Notes under the pieces: model-generated
The model's database searches: none
Told to the model about the DNA's origin: nothing
The model's input: only the letters and a program-made list of their open reading frames with translations
Source: a virus
Lineage: Duplodnaviria > Heunggongvirae > Uroviricota > Caudoviricetes
Reading direction: 5' to 3' (one strand)
IMG/VR virus record: IMGVR_UViG_2695420421_000005
DNA: 30,231 bases
Shown: in pieces, positions 1 through 30,184 of the stretch
Layout: every line of letters begins with the position of its first letter
Position numbering within the stretch: position 1 is the first letter of the stretch
Made by a program: the position numbers and the translations under genes

Positions 1-42
1 ACATAATTCCCCATTATACGCGCGTATAATGGGGAATTATGT
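1..42. repeat. Telomere resolution site-like perfect palindrome (telO/telRL type); window begins inside a probably longer palindrome
   Basis: 42-bp perfect palindrome ACATAATTCCCCATTATACGC|GCGTATAATGGGGAATTATGT centred between 21 and 22, with central CGCGCG flanked by TATAAT arms as in N15-type telomere sites; lies ~170 bp upstream of the protelomerase gene. Confidence 0.85.
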
Positions 43-212: not shown

Positions 213-2120
213 ATGAGCAAAGTAAAAATCGGTGAATTAATAAACTCACTTGTTAGCGATGTTGAGTCAATAGATAACTCTGACCGTCCTCAAGGGGAAA
301 AAACAAAAAAAATAAAGGCTGTTGCATTAAAATTTAAAAATGCATTATTTAATGACAAGCGAAAGTTTAGGGGGAAAGGATTAGAAAAAAGAATTACAGC
401 CAACACATTCAATGCCTATATGAGCAGGGCCAGAAAACGGTTTGATGATAAACTTCATCATAGCTTTGAAAAAAATATACATCGCCTATCTGAAAAGTAT
501 CCTTTATATAATGAGGAGCTATTGTCATGGCTTTCTCTACCTGCTGCCGATATTCGCCAGAGAATGTCAACTTTACAGGCAAAATTAAAATTAATTCTCC
601 CTTTATCAGAAGATTTATCTAATATCAGAATTGGTGATAACAAAAATCATAATAAGTTATTAAAATTATCAAATAAATATAAAGAGTGGCAATTCGCAAT
701 TTCTGATTTAACTAGCGATAACTGGAAAGATAAGCGCGATTATTTATATAAATTACTACAGCAAGGATCTGCCTTGCTTGAGGAGTTGAATCAGCTAAAA
801 GTTAACCATGAGATTCTCTATCATCTTCAACTAAGCCCTGCCGAACGCGCATCTATCCAGCAACGATGGGCGGACGTTCTGCACAATAAGAAACGTAACG
901 TGGTGGTCATTGATTACCCTAAATATATGCAAGCTATTTACGATATTATAAATAGCCCTGCTACATTAAATAATCTAAACACTCGTTCAGGTATGGCTCC
1001 TTTGGCATTTGCACTTGCTGCATTGTCAGGAAGACGAATGATTGAGATTATGTATCAAGGTACATTTACTGTTTCTGGTAAGTATACCGTTGATTTTTTA
1101 GGCCAAGCTAAAAAAAGAACTTCTGATGATATAACCAGAAAAATATATACATTATGCGAAGCAAAAACATTTGTTTATTTAATAAATGTACTTCGCTCAT
1201 GCCCAGCAGCATCTGATTTTGATGATGTCGTTAAAGGTTATGGAGATAACGACACACGCTCTGAAAACGGACGTATTAATGCCATATTAGCAAAGGCTTT
1301 TAACCCGTGGGTTAAATCATTTTTCAAAGATGACCGCCGTGTTTATAAAGATAGTCGTGCTATTTATGCCCGTATTGCGTATGAAATGTTTTTCCGCGTA
1401 GATCCTCGTTGGAAAAACGTAGATGAGGATGTTTTCTTTATGGAAATTTTAGGCCATGACGATGAAAACACTCAATTACACTATAAGCAATTCAAGCTGG
1501 CCAACTTCTCAAAGACATGGAGGCCAAATACTGGAAACGAAAATACCAGGCTGGAAGCATTGCAGCAGCTTGATGACGAAATGCCTGGATTCGCCAGAGG
1601 AGATGCCGGGGTTCGTCTGCATAACACAGTTAAGCAGCTGGTAGAGCAGGACCCCTCTATAAAAATCACGAACAGCACTCTAAGAGCATTCAAATTTAGC
1701 CCAACAATGATTAGCCGATACCTGGAATTTGCTGCTGATGCTCTGGGGCAATTTGTTGGCGAAAATGGACAATGGCAGCTGAAAATAGATACTCCAGAAA
1801 TCGTTATGCCTGACGAAGAAGAGCTGGAAGCAATACCTGAACAGACGGATGAATTATCAGATGATGACGATCTGGATGACGACGAAATTGAGATAGAGGA
1901 AGAGGAAGAGGAAGAGGAAGAGGAAGAGAGCGTAGAAGAACAGCAACCGCCCGCGCCTTCTTCACCTGTATCTAAGCCGGTATTTAAGCCTGTGAGAAAT
2001 ATTGGTGATGGTTCATACGTTGTTGAGTTTCATTATAATGGCCAGAATTATGCTTGGTCCGGCAGTGCAAACAGCCCTATGTCAGCAATGCAGTTAGCAT
2101 GGCTGACATATTTCGGATAA
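213..2120 (+). CDS. telN: Protelomerase (telomere resolvase) TelN, 635 aa
   Basis: Translation closely resembles my recollection of N15 TelN (N-terminus MSKVKIGELIN..., internal ...NTRSGMAPLAFALAA..SGRRMIEIM... and ...RSENGRINAILAKAFNPWVKSFF... blocks, acidic C-terminal tail); RBS AGGAGAGG 5 nt upstream of ATG; adjacent telomere palindrome. Confidence 0.95.
   Translation: MSKVKIGELINSLVSDVESIDNSDRPQGEKTKKIKAVALKFKNALFNDKRKFRGKGLEKRITANTFNAYMSRARKRFDDKLHHSFEKNIHRLSEKYPLYNEELLSWLSLPAADIRQRMSTLQAKLKLILPLSEDLSNIRIGDNKNHNKLLKLSNKYKEWQFAISDLTSDNWKDKRDYLYKLLQQGSALLEELNQLKVNHEILYHLQLSPAERASIQQRWADVLHNKKRNVVVIDYPKYMQAIYDIINSPATLNNLNTRSGMAPLAFALAALSGRRMIEIMYQGTFTVSGKYTVDFLGQAKKRTSDDITRKIYTLCEAKTFVYLINVLRSCPAASDFDDVVKGYGDNDTRSENGRINAILAKAFNPWVKSFFKDDRRVYKDSRAIYARIAYEMFFRVDPRWKNVDEDVFFMEILGHDDENTQLHYKQFKLANFSKTWRPNTGNENTRLEALQQLDDEMPGFARGDAGVRLHNTVKQLVEQDPSIKITNSTLRAFKFSPTMISRYLEFAADALGQFVGENGQWQLKIDTPEIVMPDEEELEAIPEQTDELSDDDDLDDDEIEIEEEEEEEEEEESVEEQQPPAPSSPVSKPVFKPVRNIGDGSYVVEFHYNGQNYAWSGSANSPMSAMQLAWLTYFG
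1896..1925 (+). repeat. (GAGGAA)5 in-frame hexanucleotide tract encoding a poly-Glu run in the TelN acidic tail
   Basis: Five perfect tandem GAGGAA units read directly. Confidence 0.9.
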
Positions 2121-4140: not shown

Positions 4141-4332
4141 TTACTCCCCGTTCACCGAAAAATCACGATAGAAACGTTTCCACATACGATAAGTCTGCGC
4201 GAGTTGTTCACCACGAAACATCGCCTTCCTGGCCTTCATGTTTTCCTTGTGAGACTTTCGATCTATGAACCAAAACCATTGCTGGAACACACAAAGCAAG
4301 AGACACAAAGATAATATCCACTGATTACCCAT
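4141..4332 (-). CDS. Possible small membrane protein (63 aa) translationally coupled to repA
   Basis: ATG at 4332 overlaps the repA stop; hydrophobic ILSLCLLLCVFQQWFWFI followed by a basic tail; short, so uncertain. Confidence 0.3.
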   Translation of the reverse strand: MGNQWILSLCLLLCVFQQWFWFIDRKSHKENMKARKAMFRGEQLAQTYRMWKRFYRDFSVNGE

Positions 4333-7300
4333 AGAAAGCGCCCTGCTCTTCGTAGCTGCATGAGCTATTCCCGGTAATGTATTCTCGTAACCGCCGCAGT
4401 TCATTGCTGGACAAGTGATCCATGAACTCTGTGAGGTACAGAGATGCAAACGTCATAGCTATGCTGGTTGATGACCATGATGACATAGTGGCCAGCTCCT
4501 CACCGGAAAGCGCACTCATCGCCCAGGACTCAGGAACAGCCACCGGCAATACGGCCAAAGCCTCAGAAATTACTGAATGAGGGGCGTTTTGAACCTGCTC
4601 GTTTGTGGATCGCGTTTTATCATCCATATATATATTGAGATCCAAATCGCGATCCATTTCGATGGCTGTCTTCTCGGCTTTACGCGTTTTTAGGGTTAGG
4701 CCATCTTTCTGACGCTGAACAAGAATATCCAGCATAAATGCCGCTGATTCAGGCTCAACAAAACGCAAGGTTGGACGCTTATCGCCGTCTCTGCCGCGAC
4801 GTTTACCTGTTTTAAGGCCAAGAGAGTCGCAAATGTTTTTAAACAACGCTTCCGGCACTTTAGGCTTCCCTTTTGGCGTCATAAAACCACCAATGTGCAG
4901 AACGTTATTCAACAGGTCACGGCGTTCGGCTGTCATGAGATTATCTCGAGCGAATTTGAGACGCTCCTGAGTCGCCTCGCCGGTCATAGTCTCAGGGTTG
5001 ATACCGCAGTCGATAAAGTACTGCCGGAGAGTTGCTGATTTAAGCGCATAGAAACCGCGCGCCCCGACTTCAACAGTAGGAGTAGCTTTTACCTTGTGAT
5101 CGATTATTCCAGGGAATTTAGTTTTAAAGACATCATCAGCCTGCTCGCGAGTCATCGCGGTCACTACAAAATATTGCCACTGTCCCGCCTGACGGTATGC
5201 GTAGGTAAAATTGATGGCTGCTTCTTCCCGGTCGTAACGACGAGCTGTTACCTCATCTAAAAGCATTGTTTCATAGCGGCGAACTTTGTCTCGAGCACCA
5301 TCGAAATAGAATTTCAGTGTGCCTTCTTCAACCGGTAGTTTCAGTTCGTTTTCAATATCCCAGCGGACAAGTTTTGCCTGTTCTTCAAGCGTCAGCGCGC
5401 GTTTTTTTAGCAGTTCTTCACGCTCTGATTCTTGTGGAGTTTCTGTATTGAGGTGCAGATCCAGTGTCTGTTCCCACACAATATCCCGCGCTTCTTTACG
5501 CAGATCTTTACCGATATCATTCGCAGCATAATCGGTGCCCAGCGGCGATACCTTATAACCGTCGCTGTGCATGATGCAGATCATGTTGCTGGCGTAGTCG
5601 TTACGCGCAGTCGCTTCAATTGCGGCTGCTTTAATTTTCATCCTGGTAAAGTCGGTATTGGCCACCCCCATTGATATACGGTCGCCATCGAAAATGACAT
5701 CCGTCAGTTCACCGTTCATACCTGCGGTAGCAAGCAATGCCTGGGCGAATGCTCGTTCTATTTTTTGCGGGTCAGTTTCACGTTTTGCACGAGCTTTATC
5801 AAAGCCGATAATAAATTCTTTTGCTGTACGGTCGCGGCGTAGCATTTGCACTGCGTCGCTGGGTACAACTTCACCACAGAACATGCCGAAATGACGGTCA
5901 AAATGTTTTTGCTCAATCGACACGCCGGATGAAATAGACGGGCTATAAATCAGGCCGTCGTATTTTTTGACCATCTTTTTCGGTTGATTGGTAAATGCTT
6001 CAACTTCTGGCTCTGGTTTGTTTTTCTGGTTTACACACAGAAATTTCTTACCAGGAAAATGCATTCTCAGGGTGGCTGTCACATCTTCTGCAAAGGTGGA
6101 GCTGTCGGTGGCCAACATGATTTTTTCGCCATCCGATACAGCTTTCACCACCTCGGTCATGATGCGATCTTTTTCTGTATAAAAAACCCGGATTGGCTCA
6201 CCTGTTTCGCGGTTGCGAACATCAACAGGTAATTCAATTACGTGGATCTGCAGCCATGCCGGTAAACCTAGTTCTTCACGGCGTTTCATAGCCAGTTCAG
6301 CCAGGTCAACCAGCAGATCGTTCGCATCAGCATCCACCATGATTGGGTGTTGTTCCGTTCTGGCCAGCGCGTCAATTAGCGTATTGAATACAGCCACCGG
6401 GTTTTCCATAGCCCGACCGGAAAGAACGGCACGTAGCCCTTGTGTGGCCTCGTCAAAGCCAAAATAGTCGTGCTGGCGCATCAACGGTTGCCAGCAGTTT
6501 TTAACAATCGAGTTTATGCAGATGGTCAGTTTACTGGCGTATGGAGCCATTTCCTGATAGCCAGGGTCCTGATAGTGCAGGATATCGGCTTTTACACCTT
6601 TTCCTTCAGTCATCATTTCCCACAGGCCACCAATAAGGGAAACACGGTGAGCTACAGAGATACCGCGTTCTGAGCTATGCATTAACGGTCGTAACAATCC
6701 AGTAGATTTGCCGGAACCCATACCAGCACGAACGATGACGATCCCCTGTAGTGATTGCACGTACTTCAGGACGTCATCGGTCATTACCGAAGTTTCAAAA
6801 CGCTTATAGGTGATATGTTGAGGGCGTTTATTGGGATCAGTTATGCGTTCGCTGAAAGAGCGCGGAGCCTGGGCAATACGGCACTTTTTATTCAGGCGAC
6901 GGGCAATGTGGTCTTTTACCGTAGCGCGATAGATATTTTCCAGCCCCATTTCACGCAGAACGATGCAGAACATGTTAAACAAATCTGACGGACTGTTAGG
7001 AACCGGACAGGTTAGCATGCCAATATCCACCGCTCTCAGCAGCTCTTTGGCAAAAGTACGACGGTTATCCCGCTTAATTGTCTTCAGGCGGTTGAGCGTC
7101 AGAGATAGCAAATCAGTGCCGGTTTTCAGGCGGTTTGCTGTTGCAAATAGTTGACGTGCTGTTTCACGAAGTCCACGTAGTTTGTGCAGGTCGTTGAAGT
7201 CACTGCACTCCATTTGCGGATCGTCTTCAAAAGTTGGATAGACGCAGCGGACATCGTTGAATTTCGATAAGATTTCATAGCCAGTCCGCAGGCCGGTATT

Positions 7301-8320
7301 CCCTTTTCCTTCTGTGGCTGATTTCCGGTCATTATCCAGTGCGCAGGTGATTTTTGCCGCCGGGTACATGTTTACCAGTTGTTCCACAACATGAACCATG
7401 TTGTTAGCGGATACAGCGACAACCACAGCGTCAAAGCGTTTATCTTTTTTCGTGGCAAGCCAGATGGATGCACCAGTAGCAAAACCTTCTGTAACAGCGA
7501 TGTTTTGCGCCCCTTTCAGCTCACCGATAACAAAGCAGGCACCGACGAAATCGCCGCTGGTTACTGCGCTGGTCTGGTATTTCCCACCTTGTTTGTCGAT
7601 TCGCTGCCAACCCACAATACGACCATCGTAACGACCGTCCAGGTGAGCCAGAGGGATAGCCATATATGTGGTTGGCCCCCGGTTCCATTTCGCACTGTCG
7701 TGACTGGTCACGCGACGCACATCACATGAACTAAAAACGTCACGAATACCTTTTTTAATCGCATATGGCCATGAGCCGTCTTCTGCAGGAGCATGTTCCC
7801 ACGCGCTGTGGAATGCCAGCCATCCCAGCAAACGTTCATGGTCCATTTGGTTGTTTTTCAGGTCATTAATTCGTTTTTGTTCTTCACGGCGACGACGTGC
7901 TTCGGCCTGACGTTTTATTCTTGCCCGTTCTTCTTCCGGTTGTGCGACCACGGTCGCATTATTCCGTTGTTGCTCACGGCGATATTCAGAAAACAGGAAG
8001 GAGAAACCGCTCCATGAGCCAGCATCGCTGCCTTTATGGACGAAGTTAATGAACGGGTAATCAATCCCTTTGCTGTGTTCCAGCCGGGAGTAAATTTCTA
8101 CGCGTCCTTTGAGGCTCTTTTCGAGAGCTTCTGGAGATGTTTTATTGTATGAAGAGTAACGCTCAACACCCCCGCGAGGGTTGAGTTGGATGTTGTCGGA
8201 ACAGGCAGACCAGTTGATACCAGCCATCTGTGCCAGCTCGGTTAGTTCATCCCGTGCTGCTTCAATTAGCGAGAACGGATCGCTGCCAAAGCGATCCGCA
8301 TAGAAATCGTTTAATGTCAT
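4325..8320 (-). CDS. repA: Replication protein RepA (primase-helicase), 1331 aa
   Basis: Size and position match N15 RepA (~1320 aa); Walker A motif GMGSGKST in the helicase region; sits between the telN side and the cB immunity region as in N15. Confidence 0.93.
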   Translation of the reverse strand: MTLNDFYADRFGSDPFSLIEAARDELTELAQMAGINWSACSDNIQLNPRGGVERYSSYNKTSPEALEKSLKGRVEIYSRLEHSKGIDYPFINFVHKGSDAGSWSGFSFLFSEYRREQQRNNATVVAQPEEERARIKRQAEARRRREEQKRINDLKNNQMDHERLLGWLAFHSAWEHAPAEDGSWPYAIKKGIRDVFSSCDVRRVTSHDSAKWNRGPTTYMAIPLAHLDGRYDGRIVGWQRIDKQGGKYQTSAVTSGDFVGACFVIGELKGAQNIAVTEGFATGASIWLATKKDKRFDAVVVAVSANNMVHVVEQLVNMYPAAKITCALDNDRKSATEGKGNTGLRTGYEILSKFNDVRCVYPTFEDDPQMECSDFNDLHKLRGLRETARQLFATANRLKTGTDLLSLTLNRLKTIKRDNRRTFAKELLRAVDIGMLTCPVPNSPSDLFNMFCIVLREMGLENIYRATVKDHIARRLNKKCRIAQAPRSFSERITDPNKRPQHITYKRFETSVMTDDVLKYVQSLQGIVIVRAGMGSGKSTGLLRPLMHSSERGISVAHRVSLIGGLWEMMTEGKGVKADILHYQDPGYQEMAPYASKLTICINSIVKNCWQPLMRQHDYFGFDEATQGLRAVLSGRAMENPVAVFNTLIDALARTEQHPIMVDADANDLLVDLAELAMKRREELGLPAWLQIHVIELPVDVRNRETGEPIRVFYTEKDRIMTEVVKAVSDGEKIMLATDSSTFAEDVTATLRMHFPGKKFLCVNQKNKPEPEVEAFTNQPKKMVKKYDGLIYSPSISSGVSIEQKHFDRHFGMFCGEVVPSDAVQMLRRDRTAKEFIIGFDKARAKRETDPQKIERAFAQALLATAGMNGELTDVIFDGDRISMGVANTDFTRMKIKAAAIEATARNDYASNMICIMHSDGYKVSPLGTDYAANDIGKDLRKEARDIVWEQTLDLHLNTETPQESEREELLKKRALTLEEQAKLVRWDIENELKLPVEEGTLKFYFDGARDKVRRYETMLLDEVTARRYDREEAAINFTYAYRQAGQWQYFVVTAMTREQADDVFKTKFPGIIDHKVKATPTVEVGARGFYALKSATLRQYFIDCGINPETMTGEATQERLKFARDNLMTAERRDLLNNVLHIGGFMTPKGKPKVPEALFKNICDSLGLKTGKRRGRDGDKRPTLRFVEPESAAFMLDILVQRQKDGLTLKTRKAEKTAIEMDRDLDLNIYMDDKTRSTNEQVQNAPHSVISEALAVLPVAVPESWAMSALSGEELATMSSWSSTSIAMTFASLYLTEFMDHLSSNELRRLREYITGNSSCSYEEQGAFYG
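7943..7958. repeat. sopC-like centromere-type inverted repeat TGCGACC-AC-GGTCGCA (copy 1, inside repA coding sequence)
   Basis: 7-bp inverted arms with 2-bp spacer, same architecture as the F sopC core TGGGACC-AC-GGTCCCA; five copies in this window. Confidence 0.5.
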
Positions 8321-18619: not shown

Positions 18620-18795
18620 GCGCTGCATCGTCGCCGTATTTCCGCATTAACCATGACCGTAGCCCGACGGGGAACTCCTCTGCGCGAGTGTGCGGAAATA
18701 ATCAAAAACGATGCACACCGGGTTTTTACCGCGCTAATGATTCGCGGGTTTGTCCCTCATGCTCGCCAGTCCTGTGCGAGGGTGGAAGAAACAGG
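18620..18795 (+). repeat. Direct repeat A (~176 bp), ~90% identical to repeat B at 20405-20581
   Basis: Aligned by eye: long identical blocks (GAGTGTGCGG.AATAATCAAAAACGATGCACACCGGGTTTTTACCGCG; CCCTCATGCTCGCCAGTCCTGTGCGAGGGTGGAAGAAAC) with a short variable segment near the 5' end. Confidence 0.75.
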
Positions 18796-18852: not shown

Positions 18853-19713
18853 ATGAAAGAGTTGCAAAAAATTAATTCAATAATGGAAAGGTTAAGTGCT
18901 CTTGAGCGTAAGCTGGACGATTGTGGAAAGCTGTGTGTTGAAAAGCAAAATGAGCTTTACCGGGAATTTTTTACAATCGTAAGTGAGCTGATGCCAATTG
19001 TTAATAACTGCCTGATGACATCCAGATTTTTTAATGTCGATGCTACTACATCCAGAAAATTTTCTGTGAAAATTCAAGAAAGAGTTTCTGGTAGTGTGAC
19101 AAGAGAGATGGCTGAACAGTTGGTGGCAATGAGCAATAAAACAAAAAGAAAAAAGGCATTGCTTGTAACAGCAAATCAGCTTTCAGGGCGCGTTGACTTT
19201 CAGGTCAGACAGGGTGGGCGTGTACTGGTAAATGATGCGTTCGTTGGACGTAGCTTTAGTCCTTACTCGATGAAATATGATGTTGATGCAGATGATCAGG
19301 ATATCAGCATTTCCTGGAAATCTGAGACAGCAGGGATTGTATTAACAGCAGAGTTGTTGAATGATGATAAAAATGATGTCCAGCATCATTTGGACGAAAA
19401 GAATCATATTTCTGAAATTTGTATGAAGCCACGCAGCGGAATGACTTTATTGTCACGCACTCTTGCTGCTGGCTTTTCTGCACCGGAAAAACGTGTGCTT
19501 CTGGTAGTGCCTGAAGATGCAGATATTCGACCACTGAATGGCTGTGATGTTATTAGTGCAAAAACATTGCATACCCGCGTCATTCCTGTACCGGATGTGG
19601 TCATTATTGATGATGTTGAGAAATGCAAGTCTGTTTCCTCAACTGCCACAATCAAGCGAATTTTACGTTGTAGCACGTCGGCTGTTGTATTCCGGAAGCA
19701 GTTACATAACTAA
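18853..19713 (+). CDS. Hypothetical protein X (286 aa), AT-rich gene of unknown function
   Basis: AGGAGG 6 nt upstream of ATG 18853; the ORF-track N-terminal extension from 18592 runs through the repeat and palindromes and is rejected; no motif recognised. Confidence 0.75.
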   Translation: MKELQKINSIMERLSALERKLDDCGKLCVEKQNELYREFFTIVSELMPIVNNCLMTSRFFNVDATTSRKFSVKIQERVSGSVTREMAEQLVAMSNKTKRKKALLVTANQLSGRVDFQVRQGGRVLVNDAFVGRSFSPYSMKYDVDADDQDISISWKSETAGIVLTAELLNDDKNDVQHHLDEKNHISEICMKPRSGMTLLSRTLAAGFSAPEKRVLLVVPEDADIRPLNGCDVISAKTLHTRVIPVPDVVIIDDVEKCKSVSSTATIKRILRCSTSAVVFRKQLHN

Positions 19714-19838: not shown

Positions 19839-20288
19839 ATGCAAGAAGAAGCAAATAAAATTCTTGTTGATTTATTGAAGAAGGCCAGCGATGGAATTGA
19901 TTCCGCCATTGTATTCAGTCAGGCTCAAATTCCGGATGTTGTTCATCAGTTGCTGGTATGGAATATGGTTGATAGCCTGATTAAAACATTAATAGCCATT
20001 TCAACAATTCCGCTGGTTATTTGGTTTATGAAGAAACAGTGCAAAAAAGTTGAAATTGGTAAGTTCGATAATGAAGGACGCTCATGCGATAATGGACAGC
20101 CTAAATACAAACCAACTATGCTTTGGGAAAGTGACGGTAGGTTAAGTGGTTTTGTCTTACCATTAGTAGCAGTTTTTATTCTATGGTTCAGTTTTATTAT
20201 TTCTGTAGTAGCCAATATGACATGGTTAAAAATTTGGCTGGCACCTAAGTTATATCTAATCGAATACGCAGCATCACTAATTAAATAG
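19839..20288 (+). CDS. Hypothetical two-TM membrane protein Y (149 aa)
   Basis: Two hydrophobic helices (LIKTLIAISTIPLVIWFM; GFVLPLVAVFILWFSFIISVV); AT-rich; preceded by a hairpin plus T9 run after gene X. Confidence 0.7.
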   Translation: MQEEANKILVDLLKKASDGIDSAIVFSQAQIPDVVHQLLVWNMVDSLIKTLIAISTIPLVIWFMKKQCKKVEIGKFDNEGRSCDNGQPKYKPTMLWESDGRLSGFVLPLVAVFILWFSFIISVVANMTWLKIWLAPKLYLIEYAASLIK

Positions 20289-20404: not shown

Positions 20405-20581
20405 GCGCTGTATCGTCGCCGTATTCCCGTCTTAACAGAGACCGTAGCCCGACGGGGAACTCTTTCTGCGCGAGTGTGCGGGAATAATCAAAAACGATGC
20501 ACACCGGGTTTTTACCGCGTTTATGGTTCGCGGGTTTGCCCCTCATGCTCGCCAGTCCTGTGCGAGGGTGGAAGAAACCGG
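20405..20581 (+). repeat. Direct repeat B (~177 bp), partner of repeat A
   Basis: See repeat A; lies between gene Y and the cos site. Confidence 0.75.
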
Positions 20582-20639
20582 ATATTAATGCAAGTGATAA
20601 ACATTCTCATTTTCTCGGGTCCTTTCCGGCGATCTGACA

Positions 20640-20835
20640 GGCTACGGGGCGGAAGGCGCGCGGGTTTTCGCTATTTATGAAAATTTTCCGGTTTAAGGCG
20701 TTTCCGTTCTTCTTCTCCGTAACTTCATGTTTTTATTTAAAACACCCACTGAAAAGAAAGGAAACGACAGATGCTGAAAACGGGCTTTTTGGCCTTTGTC
20801 GTTTCCTTTCTCTGTTTTTGTCCGTGGAATGAACA
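20640..20835. other. Lambda-type cos site (cosN with flanking cosQ/cosB-like sequence) upstream of Nu1
   Basis: ...CTACG|GGGCGGAAGGCG|CGCGGGTTTTCGCTATTTATGAAAATTTTCCGGTTTAAGGCGTTTCCGTTCTTCTTC... matches my recollection of the lambda genome ends except 6 nt inside the 12-nt cohesive-end position (20647-20658). Confidence 0.8.
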
Positions 20836-25082: not shown

Positions 25083-25584
25083 TCTCCCGCATATTGCCAG
25101 CATGGCTTTTAATGAGCCGCTGATGCTTGAACCCGCCTATGCGCGGGTTTTCTTTTGTGCGCTTGCAGGCCAGCTTGGGATCAGCCGCCTGACGGATGCA
25201 GTATCCGGCGACAGCCTGACTGCCGGAGAGGCACCCGCGGCGCTGGCGTTATCCGGTGATGATGACGGACCACGACAGGCCCGCAGTTATCAGGTCATGA
25301 ACGGCATCGCCGTGCTGCCGGTGTCCGGTACGCTGGTCAGTCGGACGCGGGCGCTGCAGCCGTATTCGGGAATGACTGGTTACAACGGCATTATCGCCCG
25401 TCTGCAACAGGCTGCCAGTGACCCGATGGTGGACGGCATTCTGCTCGATATGGATACGCCAGGCGGAATGGTGGCGGGGGCATTTGACTGCGCTGACATC
25501 ATCGCCCGTGTGCGTGACATAAAGCCGGTATGGGCGCTGGCAGTCGCTGGACATATGCTGGCGGTAAGCAATGGAAAGGGCTGA
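25063..25584 (+). pseudogene. C: Truncated head protease/scaffold gene C (lambda-like): first ~160 codons then an unrelated 13-codon tail and stop
   Basis: GTG start and MTAELRNLPHIASMAFNEPLMLEPAYARVFFCALAGQLGIS... match lambda gpC up to ...[11 protein letters not shown]; sequence then switches to the 3' end of an endolysin gene. Confidence 0.85.
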
Positions 25585-25634
25585 TGACCCGTCGTGAGAT
25601 TGAGCGTGAAGTCTGTTTGTGGGGGCAGCAATGA
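25543..25634 (+). pseudogene. 3' remnant of a SAR-endolysin gene (last ~29 codons: ...[29 protein letters not shown])
   Basis: ~93% identical at DNA level to the 3' end of the intact endolysin gene at 17696-17785; no upstream part of the gene present. Confidence 0.8.
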
Positions 25635-26095
25635 GCAGAGTCACCGCGATTATCTCCGCTCTGGTTATCTGCATCATCGTCTGCCTGTCATGGGCTGTTA
25701 ATCATTACCGTGATAACGCCATTACCTACAAAGAGCAGCGCGACAAAAACGCAAGAGAACTGAAGCTGGCGAACGCAACCATTACTGACATGCAGCAGAG
25801 ACAGCGTGATGTTAATGCACTCGATGCTAAATACACGAAGGAGTTAGCTGATGCGAAAGCTGAAAATGAAACTCTGCGCGCTGATGTTGCCGCTGGTCGT
25901 CGTCGGTTGCACATCAAAGCAGTCTGTCAGTCAGTGCGTGAAGCCACCACCGCCTCCGGCGTGGATAATGCAACCAGCCCCCGACTGGCAGACACCGCTG
26001 AACGGGATTATTTCACCCTCAGAGAGCGGCTGATGACGATGCAGATGCAACTGGAAGGGGCACAGGAGTATATCCGCACTCAGTGCATTAAGTAG
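25631..26095 (+). CDS. Rz: i-spanin Rz (second copy, closer to lambda Rz), 154 aa
   Basis: [49 protein letters not shown]... resembles lambda Rz. Confidence 0.9.
25851..26033 (+). CDS. Rz1: o-spanin Rz1 (second copy), 60 aa
   Basis: [20 protein letters not shown] lipoprotein signal and PPPPP region as in lambda Rz1; embedded in Rz in the +1 frame. Confidence 0.85.
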
Positions 26096-26137: not shown

Positions 26138-26488
26138 ATGCCATCACTAATCCCACGTGCCTGCCGTAAGCGTGGATGTGCAGGTACAACCACAGACAGT
26201 TCGGGTTACTGCGATAAACATCGCGGTGAAGGCTGGGTGCAGCACCAGCGCGGACTGAGCCGCCACCAGCGTGGCTATGGCTCAAAATGGACGGTGATTC
26301 GTGCCCGTATTCTGAAGCGCGATAAAGGTCTGTGTCAGTTGTGTCTGCGTGTCGGTGTGGTGAGCGAGGCGAAAACCGTCGACCACATCATCCCGAAAGC
26401 GCATGGCGGAACAGACGCAGACAGCAACCTGCAGAGTCTGTGCTGGCCCTGCCATAAAGCGAAAACAGCGCGCGAACGAATCCGGTGA
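26138..26488 (+). CDS. HNH endonuclease (phage packaging-associated), 116 aa
   Basis: HNH motif DHIIPKAHGGTDADSNLQSLCWPCHKAKT; located immediately upstream of terS. Confidence 0.85.
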   Translation: MPSLIPRACRKRGCAGTTTDSSGYCDKHRGEGWVQHQRGLSRHQRGYGSKWTVIRARILKRDKGLCQLCLRVGVVSEAKTVDHIIPKAHGGTDADSNLQSLCWPCHKAKTARERIR

Positions 26489-26570: not shown

Positions 26571-26609
26571 ATACCCGCGAAAAATGAAATTTAACCAGGA
26601 GTGCCGCAT

Positions 26610-27104
26610 ATGGCTGGAACGGCGGGGCGTTCCGGGCGTCGCCCCAAGCCAACGGCGCGCAAGGCGCTGGCCGGAAACCCCGGCAAGCGAGCCCTGAACA
26701 AAGATGAACCTGTTTTTACGCCCATCAAAGGTGTTGAGCCACCAGAGTGGTTCGCTGAAGAAGATCTCCCTCTCGCCACGATCATGTGGCAACTGACAAC
26801 CAAAGAACTCTGCGGTCAGGGCCTGCTGTGCGTGACTGACCTGGCGGTACTTGAGCGGTGGTGCGTGGCCTATGAGTTCTGGCGACGTGCCGTGAAAAAT
26901 ATTGCCATACAGGGCAACACCATCACCGGTGCAATGGGCGGCAGGGTCAAAAATCCGGAGCTGACCGCCAAAAAAGAACAGGAGTCCGAGATGAGCAGCA
27001 CGGGGGCAATGCTCGGACTCGACCCCAGCAGCCGCCAGCGTCTGATTGGCCTGGCGGGGCAGAAGAAAGCCACTAACCCGTTTCTGAAAATTATCGAATC
27101 ATGA
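26610..27104 (+). CDS. Terminase small subunit (P27/HK97 family), 164 aa from ATG 26610
   Basis: N-terminus [30 protein letters not shown] typical of P27-family small terminases; AGGAG 8 nt upstream. Confidence 0.85.
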
Positions 27105-28834
27105 GCCGGAAATCTTACCCCAACGTAAATGCTGCAAATCAGTATGCCCGGGATGTCGTGCGCGGAAAGATTGTTGCCTGCCAGTTTGTGATTCAGGCCT
27201 GCCAGCGCCATCTTGATGACCTGATGGCGGAAAAAAGTAAGTCGTTTCGTTACCGCTTCGACAAGGACCTGGCTGAACGGGCCGCGAAATTTATTCAGCT
27301 GTTGCCGCACACCAAGGGGGAGTGGGCATTCAAACGGATGCCCATCACGCTGGAGCCGTGGCAGCTATTTGTGATCTGCTGTGCGTTTGGCTGGGTCAAT
27401 AAAGGCACCCGGTTGCGCCGCTTCCGGGAGGTGTACACCGAAATCCCCCGTAAGAACGGCAAATCAGCAATCTCTGCCGGTGTTGCCCTGTATTGTTTTG
27501 CCTGTGATAACGAGTTTGGCGCGGAAGTGTATTCCGGTGCCACGACAGAGAAACAGGCGTGGGAAGTCTTTCGCCCGGCGCGACTGATGTGTAAACGCAC
27601 ACCCATGCTGACGGAAGCGTTCGGGATTGAGGTTAACGCCTCAAACATGAACCGTCCGGAGGATGGCGCGCGGTTTGAACCGCTGATCGGCAACCCAGGT
27701 GATGGTTCATCACCCCACTGTGCCGTGGTTGATGAATATCACGAGCATGCCACCGATGCGCTTTATACCACAATGCTTACCGGGATGGGGGCGCGACGTC
27801 AGCCACTGATGTGGGCCATCACCACCGCCGGGTACAACATTGAGGGGCCGTGCTACGACAAGCGGCGGGAAGTCATCGAGATGCTCAACGGCTCGGTGCC
27901 TAACGATGAACTGTTCGGGATCATCTATACCGTTGATGAAGGTGACGACTGGACCGGCCCGCAGGTGCTGGAAAAAGCCAATCCAAATATTGGCGTGTCG
28001 GTTTATCGCGAATTTTTGTTAAGTCAGCAGCAGCGTGCGAAAAATAACGCCCGTCTGGCAAACGTCTTTAAAACAAAACACCTCAATATCTGGGTGTCGG
28101 CGCGTTCGGCGTATTTCAACTTGGTGAGCTGGCAGAGCTGCGAGGATAAATCACTGACCCTTGAGCAGTTCGAGGGGCAGCCGTGCATTCTGGCCTTTGA
28201 CCTGGCGCGTAAGCTGGATATGAACAGCATGGCGCGACTTTATACCCGCGAGATTGACGGTAAAACGCATTACTACAGTGTGGCCCCGCGTTTCTGGGTA
28301 CCGTATGACACGGTGTACAGCGTCGAGAAAAATGAAGATCGACGGACAGCCGAACGCTTTCAGAAATGGGTGGAAATGGGCGTTCTGACCGTTACCGATG
28401 GTGCGGAGGTGGATTATCGCTACATCCTCGAGGAGGCCAAAGCGGCGAACAAAATCAGCCCGGTCAGTGAGTCACCCATCGACCCCTTCGGGGCGACCGG
28501 GTTGTCACATGACCTTGCTGATGAAGACCTGAATCCCGTCACTATCGTCCAGAACTTCACCAATATGTCCGATCCGATGAAAGAGCTGGAAGCAGCGATT
28601 GAATCGGGACGTTTTCATCATGACGGCAATCCCATCATGACCTGGTGTATCGGCAACGTGGTCGGCAAAAACATGCCGGGTAACGATGATGTGGTGAAAC
28701 CCGTCAAAGAGCAGGCGGAAAACAAAATCGATGGTGCAGTTGCGCTGATTATGGCGGTTGGCAGAGCCATGCTGTACGAGAAAGAAGACACGCTGTCTGA
28801 CCACATTGAGTCCTACGGGATCCGCTCGCTTTAA
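27101..28834 (+). CDS. Terminase large subunit (HK97-like), 577 aa
   Basis: Size, position and ATGA coupling to terS; followed by a portal gene. Confidence 0.85.
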
Positions 28835-28845
28835 CTGAGGTAATT

Positions 28846-29028
28846 ATGATCATGCTGATTCTCGCGCCTCTGGTGGGCGTGCTGGGTGCGCTTTTGCTGG
28901 CGTATGGTGCCTGGCTGATTTATCCCCCGGCGGGTTTTGTTGTTGCCGGGGCGCTGTGCCTGTTCTGGTCGTGGCTGGTGGCGCGATATCTCGACCGTAC
29001 ACGGCAGTCTGTCGGCGGAGGTAAATAG
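28846..29028 (+). CDS. Small hydrophobic protein (60 aa) between terL and portal
   Basis: Two hydrophobic segments; TGAGG upstream of ATG. Confidence 0.55.
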
Positions 29029-30184
29029 TGTTCTTTTCGGGATTATTTCAACGAAAAAGCGATGTGCCGGTGACCACGCCAGCAGAACTGCTGATGCTAT
29101 CGGGCTGTCATACGACACCTATACCGGAAAGCGGATCAGTAGCCAGCGGGCCATGCGCCTGACGGCGGTCTATTCTTGCGTCAGGGTGCTGGCAGAGTCT
29201 GTTGGTATGCTGCCCTGCAGTCTCTACAAAATCAGCGGTACCCTGAAAACACGGGCGGTGGATGAACGACTGCATAAGTTGGTTTCGGCAAAACCTAATG
29301 GCTACATGACACCGCAGGAATTCTGGGAGCTGGTTATTGTCTGCCTGTGTCTACGGGGGAATTTTTACGCCTACAAGGTAAAGGCACTGGGAGAAGTGGT
29401 GGAGCTTCTTCCGATAGATCCGGGCTGTGTGGAACCGAAGCTGAACAGCCAGTGGCAGCCGGTTTATCAGGTGACGTTTCCGGATGGTTCCGTGGATGTG
29501 TTGACCCAGAATGAAATCTGGCATGTGCGCACCCTGACGCTGGATGGACTTGTCGGGCTGAATCCCATTGCGTATGCGCGTGAGGCCATTTCACTGGCAG
29601 CGGCAACCGAGGAGCACGGTGCCAGGTTGTTTAGTAATGGTGCGGTGACATCCGGTGTGTTGCGTACGGAACAAAAGCTCACGCCGGATGCTTACGAGCG
29701 TCTGAAGAAAGATTTTGAGGAGTGTCACACGGGGCTTGGCAATGCTCACCGCCCGATGATTCTGGAAATGGGGCTGGACTGGAAGTCGATGGCGCTGAAC
29801 GCCGAGGACAGTCAGTTCCTGGAAACCCGCAAGTTTCAGCTGGAAGAAATCTGTCGTCTGTTCCGGGTGCCGTTGCACATGGTGCAGAACACCGATCGCG
29901 CCACCTTCAACAATATCGAAGAGCTGGGGCTGGGATTTATCAACTATTCACTGGTGCCGTATCTGACCCGCATCGAACAGCGGATCAACACCGGACTGGT
30001 ACGAAAAAGTAAGCAGGGCGTTTATTACGCCAAATTTAACGCCGGGGCGTTACTGCGCGGGGATATGAAGTCCCGTTTTGAAGCCTACGCCACCGGGATC
30101 AACTGGGGAATTTACTCTTCCAATGACTGCCGCGACCTGGAAGATATGAATCCGCGTCCCGGTGGTGTAATGCCGATCAGTTAA
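29028..30184 (+). CDS. Portal protein (HK97 family) with apparent +1/-1 frame change near 29090 (possible pseudogene or sequencing error)
   Basis: GGAGG 6 nt upstream of GTG 29028 opens a frame reading [22 protein letters not shown] that stops at 29160; the long portal-like ORF (ADAIGLSYDTYTGKRISSQRAMRLTAVYSCVRV...) is in another frame with no in-frame start until the Met in AMRL. Confidence 0.7.

Follow-up and report, generated by a model that had tools for sequence, protein, structure and literature searches.

The cos site at positions 20617-20811 of the window, by which we mean the whole 30,231-nucleotide stretch of viral DNA analyzed here (IMG/VR record IMGVR_UViG_2695420421_000005), is very probably the functional, lambda-specificity cos of an N15-like linear phage-plasmid whose head and packaging module is of lambda type, cut in the ordinary manner and carrying a polymorphic allele of the cohesive-end core. 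The site is real but ordinary: it is a widespread natural variant in the change-tolerant half of the cut site. Variation of this kind is already known, and the same sequence is present in named phage records and in hundreds of genomes.

A lambda-type cos with a substituted cohesive-end core

Alignments to DE3/lambda and to NC_001416 bp 1-190 place the core GGGCGGAAGGCG in exact register with the lambda cohesive end GGGCGGCGACCT, with which the phi80 and lambda records both begin. The first-pass annotation had reported a lambda-type cos (cosQ-cosN-cosB followed by Nu1 and A) with a non-lambda core, which the alignment bears out, and had counted six differing core bases, of which only five are real (window/lambda, numbered from the cohesive end: bp 7, A/C; bp 8, A/G; bp 9, G/A; bp 10, G/C; bp 12, G/T); the C at bp 11 is conserved. 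When the window is compared with lambda bp 1-190, 175 of 189 positions match, and five of the 14 mismatches fall inside the 6-bp block at bp 7-12, with the remaining nine mismatches and a 1-nt deletion spread over ~177 bp (~5%). At a background divergence of 5%, at least five changes in six positions are expected with a probability of ~2e-6, and the clustering of the core changes is thus not due to chance. The overhang has a G+C content of 10/12, as in lambda, and the predicted energy of the overhang homoduplex is -18.6 kcal/mol, versus -19.0 kcal/mol for lambda.

The surroundings of the core are those of lambda (NC_001416 bp 48473-48502 and 1-190), with cosQ, cosN and a three-R cosB at lambda spacing, and with adjacent Nu1 and A genes reading away from the site (Table 1). 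The near-identity to lambda of the flanking cosQ and cosB sequences, claimed previously, holds: cosQ, R3 and R2 are exact, and R1 matches at 15/16 positions. The cosQ heptamer GGGTCCT is invariant in an alignment with lambda/DE3, an Stx1a phage, PhiR46_1 and YDC107_1. The position of cosQ in lambda follows the supplement of Fillol-Salom (2018; see also Wieczorek and Feiss 2001), from which the 16-mer definitions of the R sites are also taken. The cosN (in context, GGGTCCTTTCCGGCGATCTGACAGGCTACG-GGGCGGAAGGCG-CGCGGGTTTTCGCTATTTATG) retains GGGCGG as its left half and a CG pair beside each of the two nick positions, which are 12 bp apart. Ten of the 22 cosN bp show rotational symmetry; the count is the same in lambda, although the set is partly different, and it does not discriminate between explanations. 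Lambda differs in the overhang, five of whose 12 positions depart from the canonical lambda/21/phi80 sequence, and in six substitutions in the R3-R2 interval, which is of the same length as in lambda. The sole indel over bp 1-190 is the 1-nt deletion, which lies between R2 and R1, and Nu1 starts at bp 190 in the window versus bp 191 in lambda.

Other cos types fit less well. N15 has a simple cosB with one R site (a single R3, without I1, R2 and R1) and a gene 1 start at bp 89; the window, despite its N15-like replicon, has the three R sites of lambda. The AAGGCG core, together with the cosN-proximal flank, also occurs with the cosB and TerS of phage 21 type, but because the window has lambda-type R sites and the lambda Nu1 DNA-binding domain, it is not of 21 specificity.

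Table 1. Features of the cos region, of the genes around it and of the second packaging module (window coordinates; bp numbers are relative to the cohesive end)
Feature	Position	Strand	Remarks
Protelomerase ORF	213-2120		Aligns with the annotated protelomerase of NZ_LR883007.1
Replication ORF	4325-8320	minus	Aligns with the CyRepA1-family replication protein of NZ_LR883007.1; N15-type RepA (about 1,330 aa)
cosQ heptamer GGGTCCT	20617..20623	+	Packaging termination element; bp -29..-23
cosN, CTACG-GGGCGGAAGGCG-CGCGG	20642..20663	+	22-bp nicking site; bp -5..17
Predicted top-strand nick	20646/20647		By analogy with lambda (PMC9026076)
Predicted 12-nt 5' cohesive end GGGCGGAAGGCG	20647..20658	+	Single occurrence in the window
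Predicted bottom-strand nick	20658/20659		By analogy with lambda (PMC9026076)
cosB R3 AAGGCGTTTCCGTTCT	20695..20710	+	TerS anchoring site; 16/16 versus lambda; lambda spacing from cosN
R3-R2 interval	20711..20754	+	Counterpart of lambda IHF site I1; six substitutions (bp 70, 71, 73, 80, 97, 102)
cosB R2 AGAAAGGAAACGACAG	20755..20770	+	Inverted orientation; 16/16 versus lambda
cosB R1 TTGTCGTTTCCTTTCT	20796..20811	+	15/16 versus lambda
Nu1 (TerS), 181 aa	20836..21381	+	Start at bp 190; phrog_57, terminase small subunit
A (TerL), 641 aa	21356..23281	+	635/641 (99%) identical to lambda gpA
Rz	25619-26095		
HNH endonuclease	26138-26488		
TerS of second packaging module	26601-27104		
TerL of second packaging module	27101-28834		
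Portal	28937-30184		

The element that carries the site

Positions 1-25541 of the window are 97-98% identical to the enterotoxigenic Escherichia coli (ETEC) plasmid NZ_LR883007.1, which encodes a protelomerase, a CyRepA1-family replication protein, Q, lysis genes, and lambda-type terminase, head and tail genes. The window is also collinear with PhiR46_1, the shared order being telL, protelomerase, RepA, the lysis genes, cos, Nu1, A, W and B. The PhiR46_1 record, a complete linear phage-plasmid of 46.3 kb deposited in the prophage (telL-telR) orientation, has telL and telR annotations at its two ends and keeps its head/tail module intact. The record lists a host, which is the sole indication that the phage is viable, and our literature search found no paper describing the PhiR phages. 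Window positions 1-42 form a perfect palindrome, ACATAATTCCCCATTATACGCG-CGCGTATAATGGGGAATTATGT, matching telL as annotated in PhiR46_1; the window begins at the hairpin telomere of a linear phage-plasmid, with its first ~21 nt resembling fold-back read-through. With a protelomerase beside a telomere palindrome, an N15-type RepA and a cos internal to the prophage map, and given these relatives, we assign the site to an N15-like linear phage-plasmid whose morphogenesis module is of lambda type, an element unlike lambda, which integrates.

PhiR46_1 and NZ_LR883007.1 continue with an intact lambda head/tail module, whereas in the window similarity to the phage-plasmid ends at 25541, inside the head protease/scaffold gene C. 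From 25543 there follow the 3' end of a lysozyme gene and then a different packaging module up to 30231 (Table 1), which we take to resemble the HNH-plus-terminase arrangement of HK97. The 25541/25543 junction is present in none of 5,426 complete E. coli genomes (0/5,426), so that it is either an assembly chimera or a rearrangement unique to the window, and, with the head module broken in gene C, this particular copy of cos may sit in a defective or misassembled element.

Two structural details of these elements were noted. Just upstream of cosQ there is a 177-bp direct repeat (18620-18795 and 20405-20581), the copies of which each align to the same segments of NZ_LR883007.1, at 91.5% and 94.9% identity; it brackets a 1.6-kb insert with two genes (18853-19713, phrog_2571; 19839-20288, phrog_3054), and this looks like a moron insertion with a duplicated pre-cosQ segment. 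NZ_LR883007.1 (L127), the closest relative, is deposited as a circular plasmid and has an inverted duplication at 38583-45720, centered near 42152, with two copies of the protelomerase gene, as typically results when long reads are assembled across a hairpin telomere. An ISKpn26 (IS5-family) insertion in this plasmid is absent from the window.

Distribution of the AAGGCG allele

We searched phage records, E. coli genomes and PLSDB with a 43-nt query, seeding only across the variant core. Among phage records there were two matches, PhiR46_1 (PV340565) and YDC107_1 (CP025712; classed in Ravinvirus), with an identical 12-nt core and a cos region about 95% identical to that of the window; the site is thus essentially the standard cos of known lambdoid phages with the same terminase, the finding that the first-pass annotation had named as refuting its proposal. 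Of the 5,426 complete E. coli genomes, 156 carry the allele, at 167 places (151 on chromosomes, 16 on plasmids), and it is also present in 24 PLSDB plasmids of E. coli, E. fergusonii, E. albertii and S. sonnei. With a comparison query of 121 nt from the cos region, 4,338 genomes yield a total of 8,044 lambda-type places, of which 35 are plasmid-borne, such that the allele accounts for ~2% of lambda-type cos places in complete E. coli genomes. It is strongly enriched on plasmid records (16/35 plasmid-borne places, versus 151/8,009 chromosomal ones), and lambda-headed N15-like phage-plasmids seem to carry mostly the AAGGCG overhang. In species-representative genomes the cores are CGACCT (15), CGTCCG (5), CAGCGT (1) and AAGGCG (1, in Escherichia sp. 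E1V33).

An enumeration in IMG/VR of every noncanonical bp 7-12 allele with a lambda-, phi80- or N15-type flank shows AAGGCG to be the commonest non-lambda allele, at 82 loci, followed by CGTCCG (the N15/phiD326 type; 63 loci), CAGCGG (22), CGTCCT (14), CGACCG (10), AGACCT (7), CAGGCG (4), GAGCGT and CAGACG (3 each), TGACCT (2), and AGACCG, AAGCGT, AAGGCT, CAACCT and CTGACG (1 each). Within this enumeration CGA at bp 7-9 is never combined with a change at bp 10, nor CGAC at bp 7-10 with one at bp 11. One-step neighbors of AAGGCG do exist (CAGGCG and AAGGCT). Introgression from a recognizable donor lineage was considered and set aside: IMG/VR holds a graded family of alleles (CAGGCG, CAGACG, CAGCGG, AAGCGT and others) with no donor identified. 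Neither the fetched IMG/VR loci nor the phage records include a contig or record that starts or ends at the variant core.

The natural variants described for other phages follow the same pattern. The cosN of N15 and phiD326 (GGGCGGCGTCCG), that of mEp213/LLS (GGGCGGCGCGCT) and that of Gifsy-1 also vary only at bp 7-12, with bp 1-6 and the CG pairs kept, but they have two or three differences from lambda, versus five in the window allele. Such variation has been recorded for phiD326, N15 and Gifsy-1 (PMC4669245) and for mEp213/LLS (PMC12315714), and, in PMC4669245 and PMC9303873 (citing Vahanian 2017), the left half and the nick-flanking CG pairs are reported to be conserved in lambda-like phages. 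The much larger natural sample described here confirms what has been published, namely that cosN is free to vary in its cosB-proximal half but not at bp 1-6 or in the nick-flanking CG.

AAGGCG is not restricted to sites of lambda specificity. It is found with a 21-type cosB and a gp1-like TerS at 18 IMG/VR loci (for example, L139) and in the ETEC H10407 prophage (L375; NC_017633.1 1307976-1308010); at L375 and at loci such as L139 the gp1-like TerS is joined to a lambda-like TerL. The allele thus crosses packaging-specificity classes. It is also present in four satellite-like loci (L135, position 4115, IMG/VR UViG_2645728091_000007; L143; L194; and L204), which have capsid-like and AlpA-like genes, cos and then a 183-aa TerS/Rpp-like gene, with no TerL gene; cos regions related to these are present in 364/5,426 E. 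coli genomes. The AAGGCG allele is an established natural polymorphism, moving among phages of lambda and 21 specificity, phage-plasmids and satellite-like elements.

Terminases are shared between the two alleles

The previously noted near-identity of Nu1 and A to their lambda counterparts holds at 93% and 99%, respectively. Nu1 is identical to lambda Nu1 at 169/181 residues, and residues 1-70, including the winged-helix DNA-binding domain, are identical throughout; gpA departs from lambda gpA by N9D, R16C, S21A, T151S, I459V and T466I. To compare the alleles, TerS and TerL were extracted from 105 loci. Five distinct 641-aa TerL proteins, each 100% identical, are found beside both AAGGCG and CGACCT cores, as are several Nu1 proteins that are 100% identical, among them most of the common ones. 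The 82 gpA sequences with over 97% identity to lambda gpA have no column in which the alleles are fixed for different residues, and the only allele-associated columns are residues 9 and 21, in the portion of the gene nearest cos, so that the association fits linkage, not function. The nuclease-region substitutions I459V and T466I are seen with both cores, and none of the six gpA substitutions separates the alleles. AAGGCG also adjoins TerL proteins that are only ~64% identical to the gpA of the window.

L209 (AAGGCG) and L008 (CGACCT) differ over -150..+733 (880 bp) only at bp 7, 8, 9, 10 and 12, with nine further differing positions up to +2650. Together with the shared terminases and the other packaging contexts, such near-identical backgrounds show that the block segregates independently of the enzyme.

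Predicted cutting of the variant site

The genetics of lambda cosN provide a basis for predicting how the variant is cut. In lambda, a second TerL nicks the top strand (PMC9026076; PMC4669245). Mutations at bp 7-12 have a minimal phenotype, whereas the symmetric left-half changes are severe (Feiss et al. 2015, PMC4669245): G2C has a ten-fold cost and C11G has none, and TerL-lambda gives equal yields with cosN-lambda and cosN-N15 (PMC4669245). These tests of right-half tolerance covered one or two changes, not five together (PMC4669245). We found no published experiment on the AAGGCG allele, and the string GGGCGGAAGGCG was not found in phage papers in a literature search outside the survey of natural cosN sites by Vahanian et al. 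(2017; Virology 509:140). Phage-inducible chromosomal islands (PICIs) were considered as a route to experimental proof, but cos1 and cos2 of EcCICFT073 and the cos of CFT073 phage 4 are all the canonical GGGCGGCGACCT (Fillol-Salom 2018 supplement), and their packaging by lambda and phi80 is therefore uninformative on AAGGCG.

By homology, Nu1, with its lambda-identical DNA-binding domain, would bind R3, R2 and R1 and anchor gpA as in lambda, and gpA would then nick 12 bp apart at the conserved CG-flanked positions. The left end is predicted to have the 5' overhang GGGCGGAAGGCG, and the right end its complement. The five changes all lie in the cosB-proximal half (bp 7-12), where TerS anchoring would make nicking insensitive to sequence, and the published genetics and the shared proteins suggest that an unmodified lambda-type terminase should cut AAGGCG like the canonical core. 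Because the changes are confined to the tolerant half, and G2, C11 and both CG pairs are kept, we infer that cutting is ordinary; and because both chromosome ends derive from the same cos allele, the element's own ends should stay complementary.

Alternative explanations and hybrid compatibility

The first-pass annotation had suggested that the variant core could alter the nicking specificity of terminase. A co-evolved specificity, in which the core needs or selects a terminase with altered nicking and lambda terminase would cut it poorly, could account for the simultaneous change of five of the six right-half bases and for the two nuclease-region substitutions, I459V and T466I, in the gpA of the window. 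We consider it highly improbable, as these substitutions accompany both cores, the associated residues 9 and 21 fit linkage, identical TerL and Nu1 proteins serve both alleles, the allele also adjoins the divergent TerL proteins, and TerL-lambda is indifferent to right-half changes (PMC4669245). The shared terminases, the L209/L008 pair and the tolerance of bp 7-12 (PMC4669245), with no fixed gpA column, leave the suggestion unsupported. No more credible is a decayed cos, with the core mutated in a cryptic element and out of use: the truncation of the head module at 25541, the run into an unrelated packaging module, and a junction found in no complete E. coli genome would be expected of such an element, but hundreds of independent loci share the identical five changes, and some of these loci are complete phage-plasmids whose morphogenesis genes are intact. 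Mutations would also be spread through a decaying site, yet cosQ, R3, R2, the left half of cosN and the nick-flanking CG show none, and the overhang keeps the G+C content and the predicted stability of that of lambda.

Packaging compatibility of hybrids, also raised earlier, is a different matter. In the predicted duplex of window and lambda overhangs, pairing is only at bp 1-6, with an energy of -9.5 kcal/mol, compared with predicted values of about -19 kcal/mol for matched ends and about -15 kcal/mol for the lambda x N15 mismatch; the latter, of two bases, already results in a four-fold loss of viable yield (PMC4669245). Judging from the overhangs, chromosomes cut from heteroallelic concatemers would probably circularize poorly, and reduced compatibility of ends in heteroallelic hybrids is plausible. 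A stronger version, which we think unlikely, is that AAGGCG constitutes a second cohesive-end compatibility group served by the same terminases, in which 6/12 pairing and mostly failed circularization create a partial reproductive barrier. If true, this barrier could explain the dominance of AAGGCG in lambda-headed phage-plasmids that share cells with canonical chromosomal prophages, and would add a small mechanism of genetic isolation among lambdoid phages. It is more doubtful still, and in our estimation very unlikely, that the allele is kept by selection because its ends cannot anneal with canonical ones, with heteroallelic chromosomes penalized and the element partially isolated from co-resident prophages. 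The poor predicted pairing, the cost of the smaller N15 mismatch and the enrichment on plasmid records are all consistent with such selection. However, the enrichment could be due to shared ancestry within a single phage-plasmid lineage, the many IMG/VR alleles, including the one-step neighbors, have the look of weak constraint rather than of two selected types, and backgrounds otherwise identical to canonical ones imply frequent recombination around the allele. The broad allele spectrum and the near-identical backgrounds thus favor weak constraint over a maintained barrier, and we prefer the reading of an ordinarily cut, polymorphic lambda-type site.

Implications for annotation

The allele has little importance beyond annotation. 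Prediction of genome ends and re-orientation of lambda-like phages and phage-plasmids should accept GGGCGGAAGGCG as a cohesive end, and anyone using such elements for cosmids or packaging should be prepared for ends that do not anneal to those of lambda.

We note that exact copies of the lambda cos are present in genome contigs of Raphidiopsis brookii D9, Aeromicrobium sp. PE09-221, Archangium violaceum and Alicyclobacillus fastidiosus (L229, L231, L232 and L235), and that the Alicyclobacillus fastidiosus copy is on a 39.8-kb 'plasmid'. The lambda cos in these assemblies is most likely contamination with lambda or cosmid DNA. In the Archangium copy, a phi80-like cosQ side is joined to a lambda cosB side.
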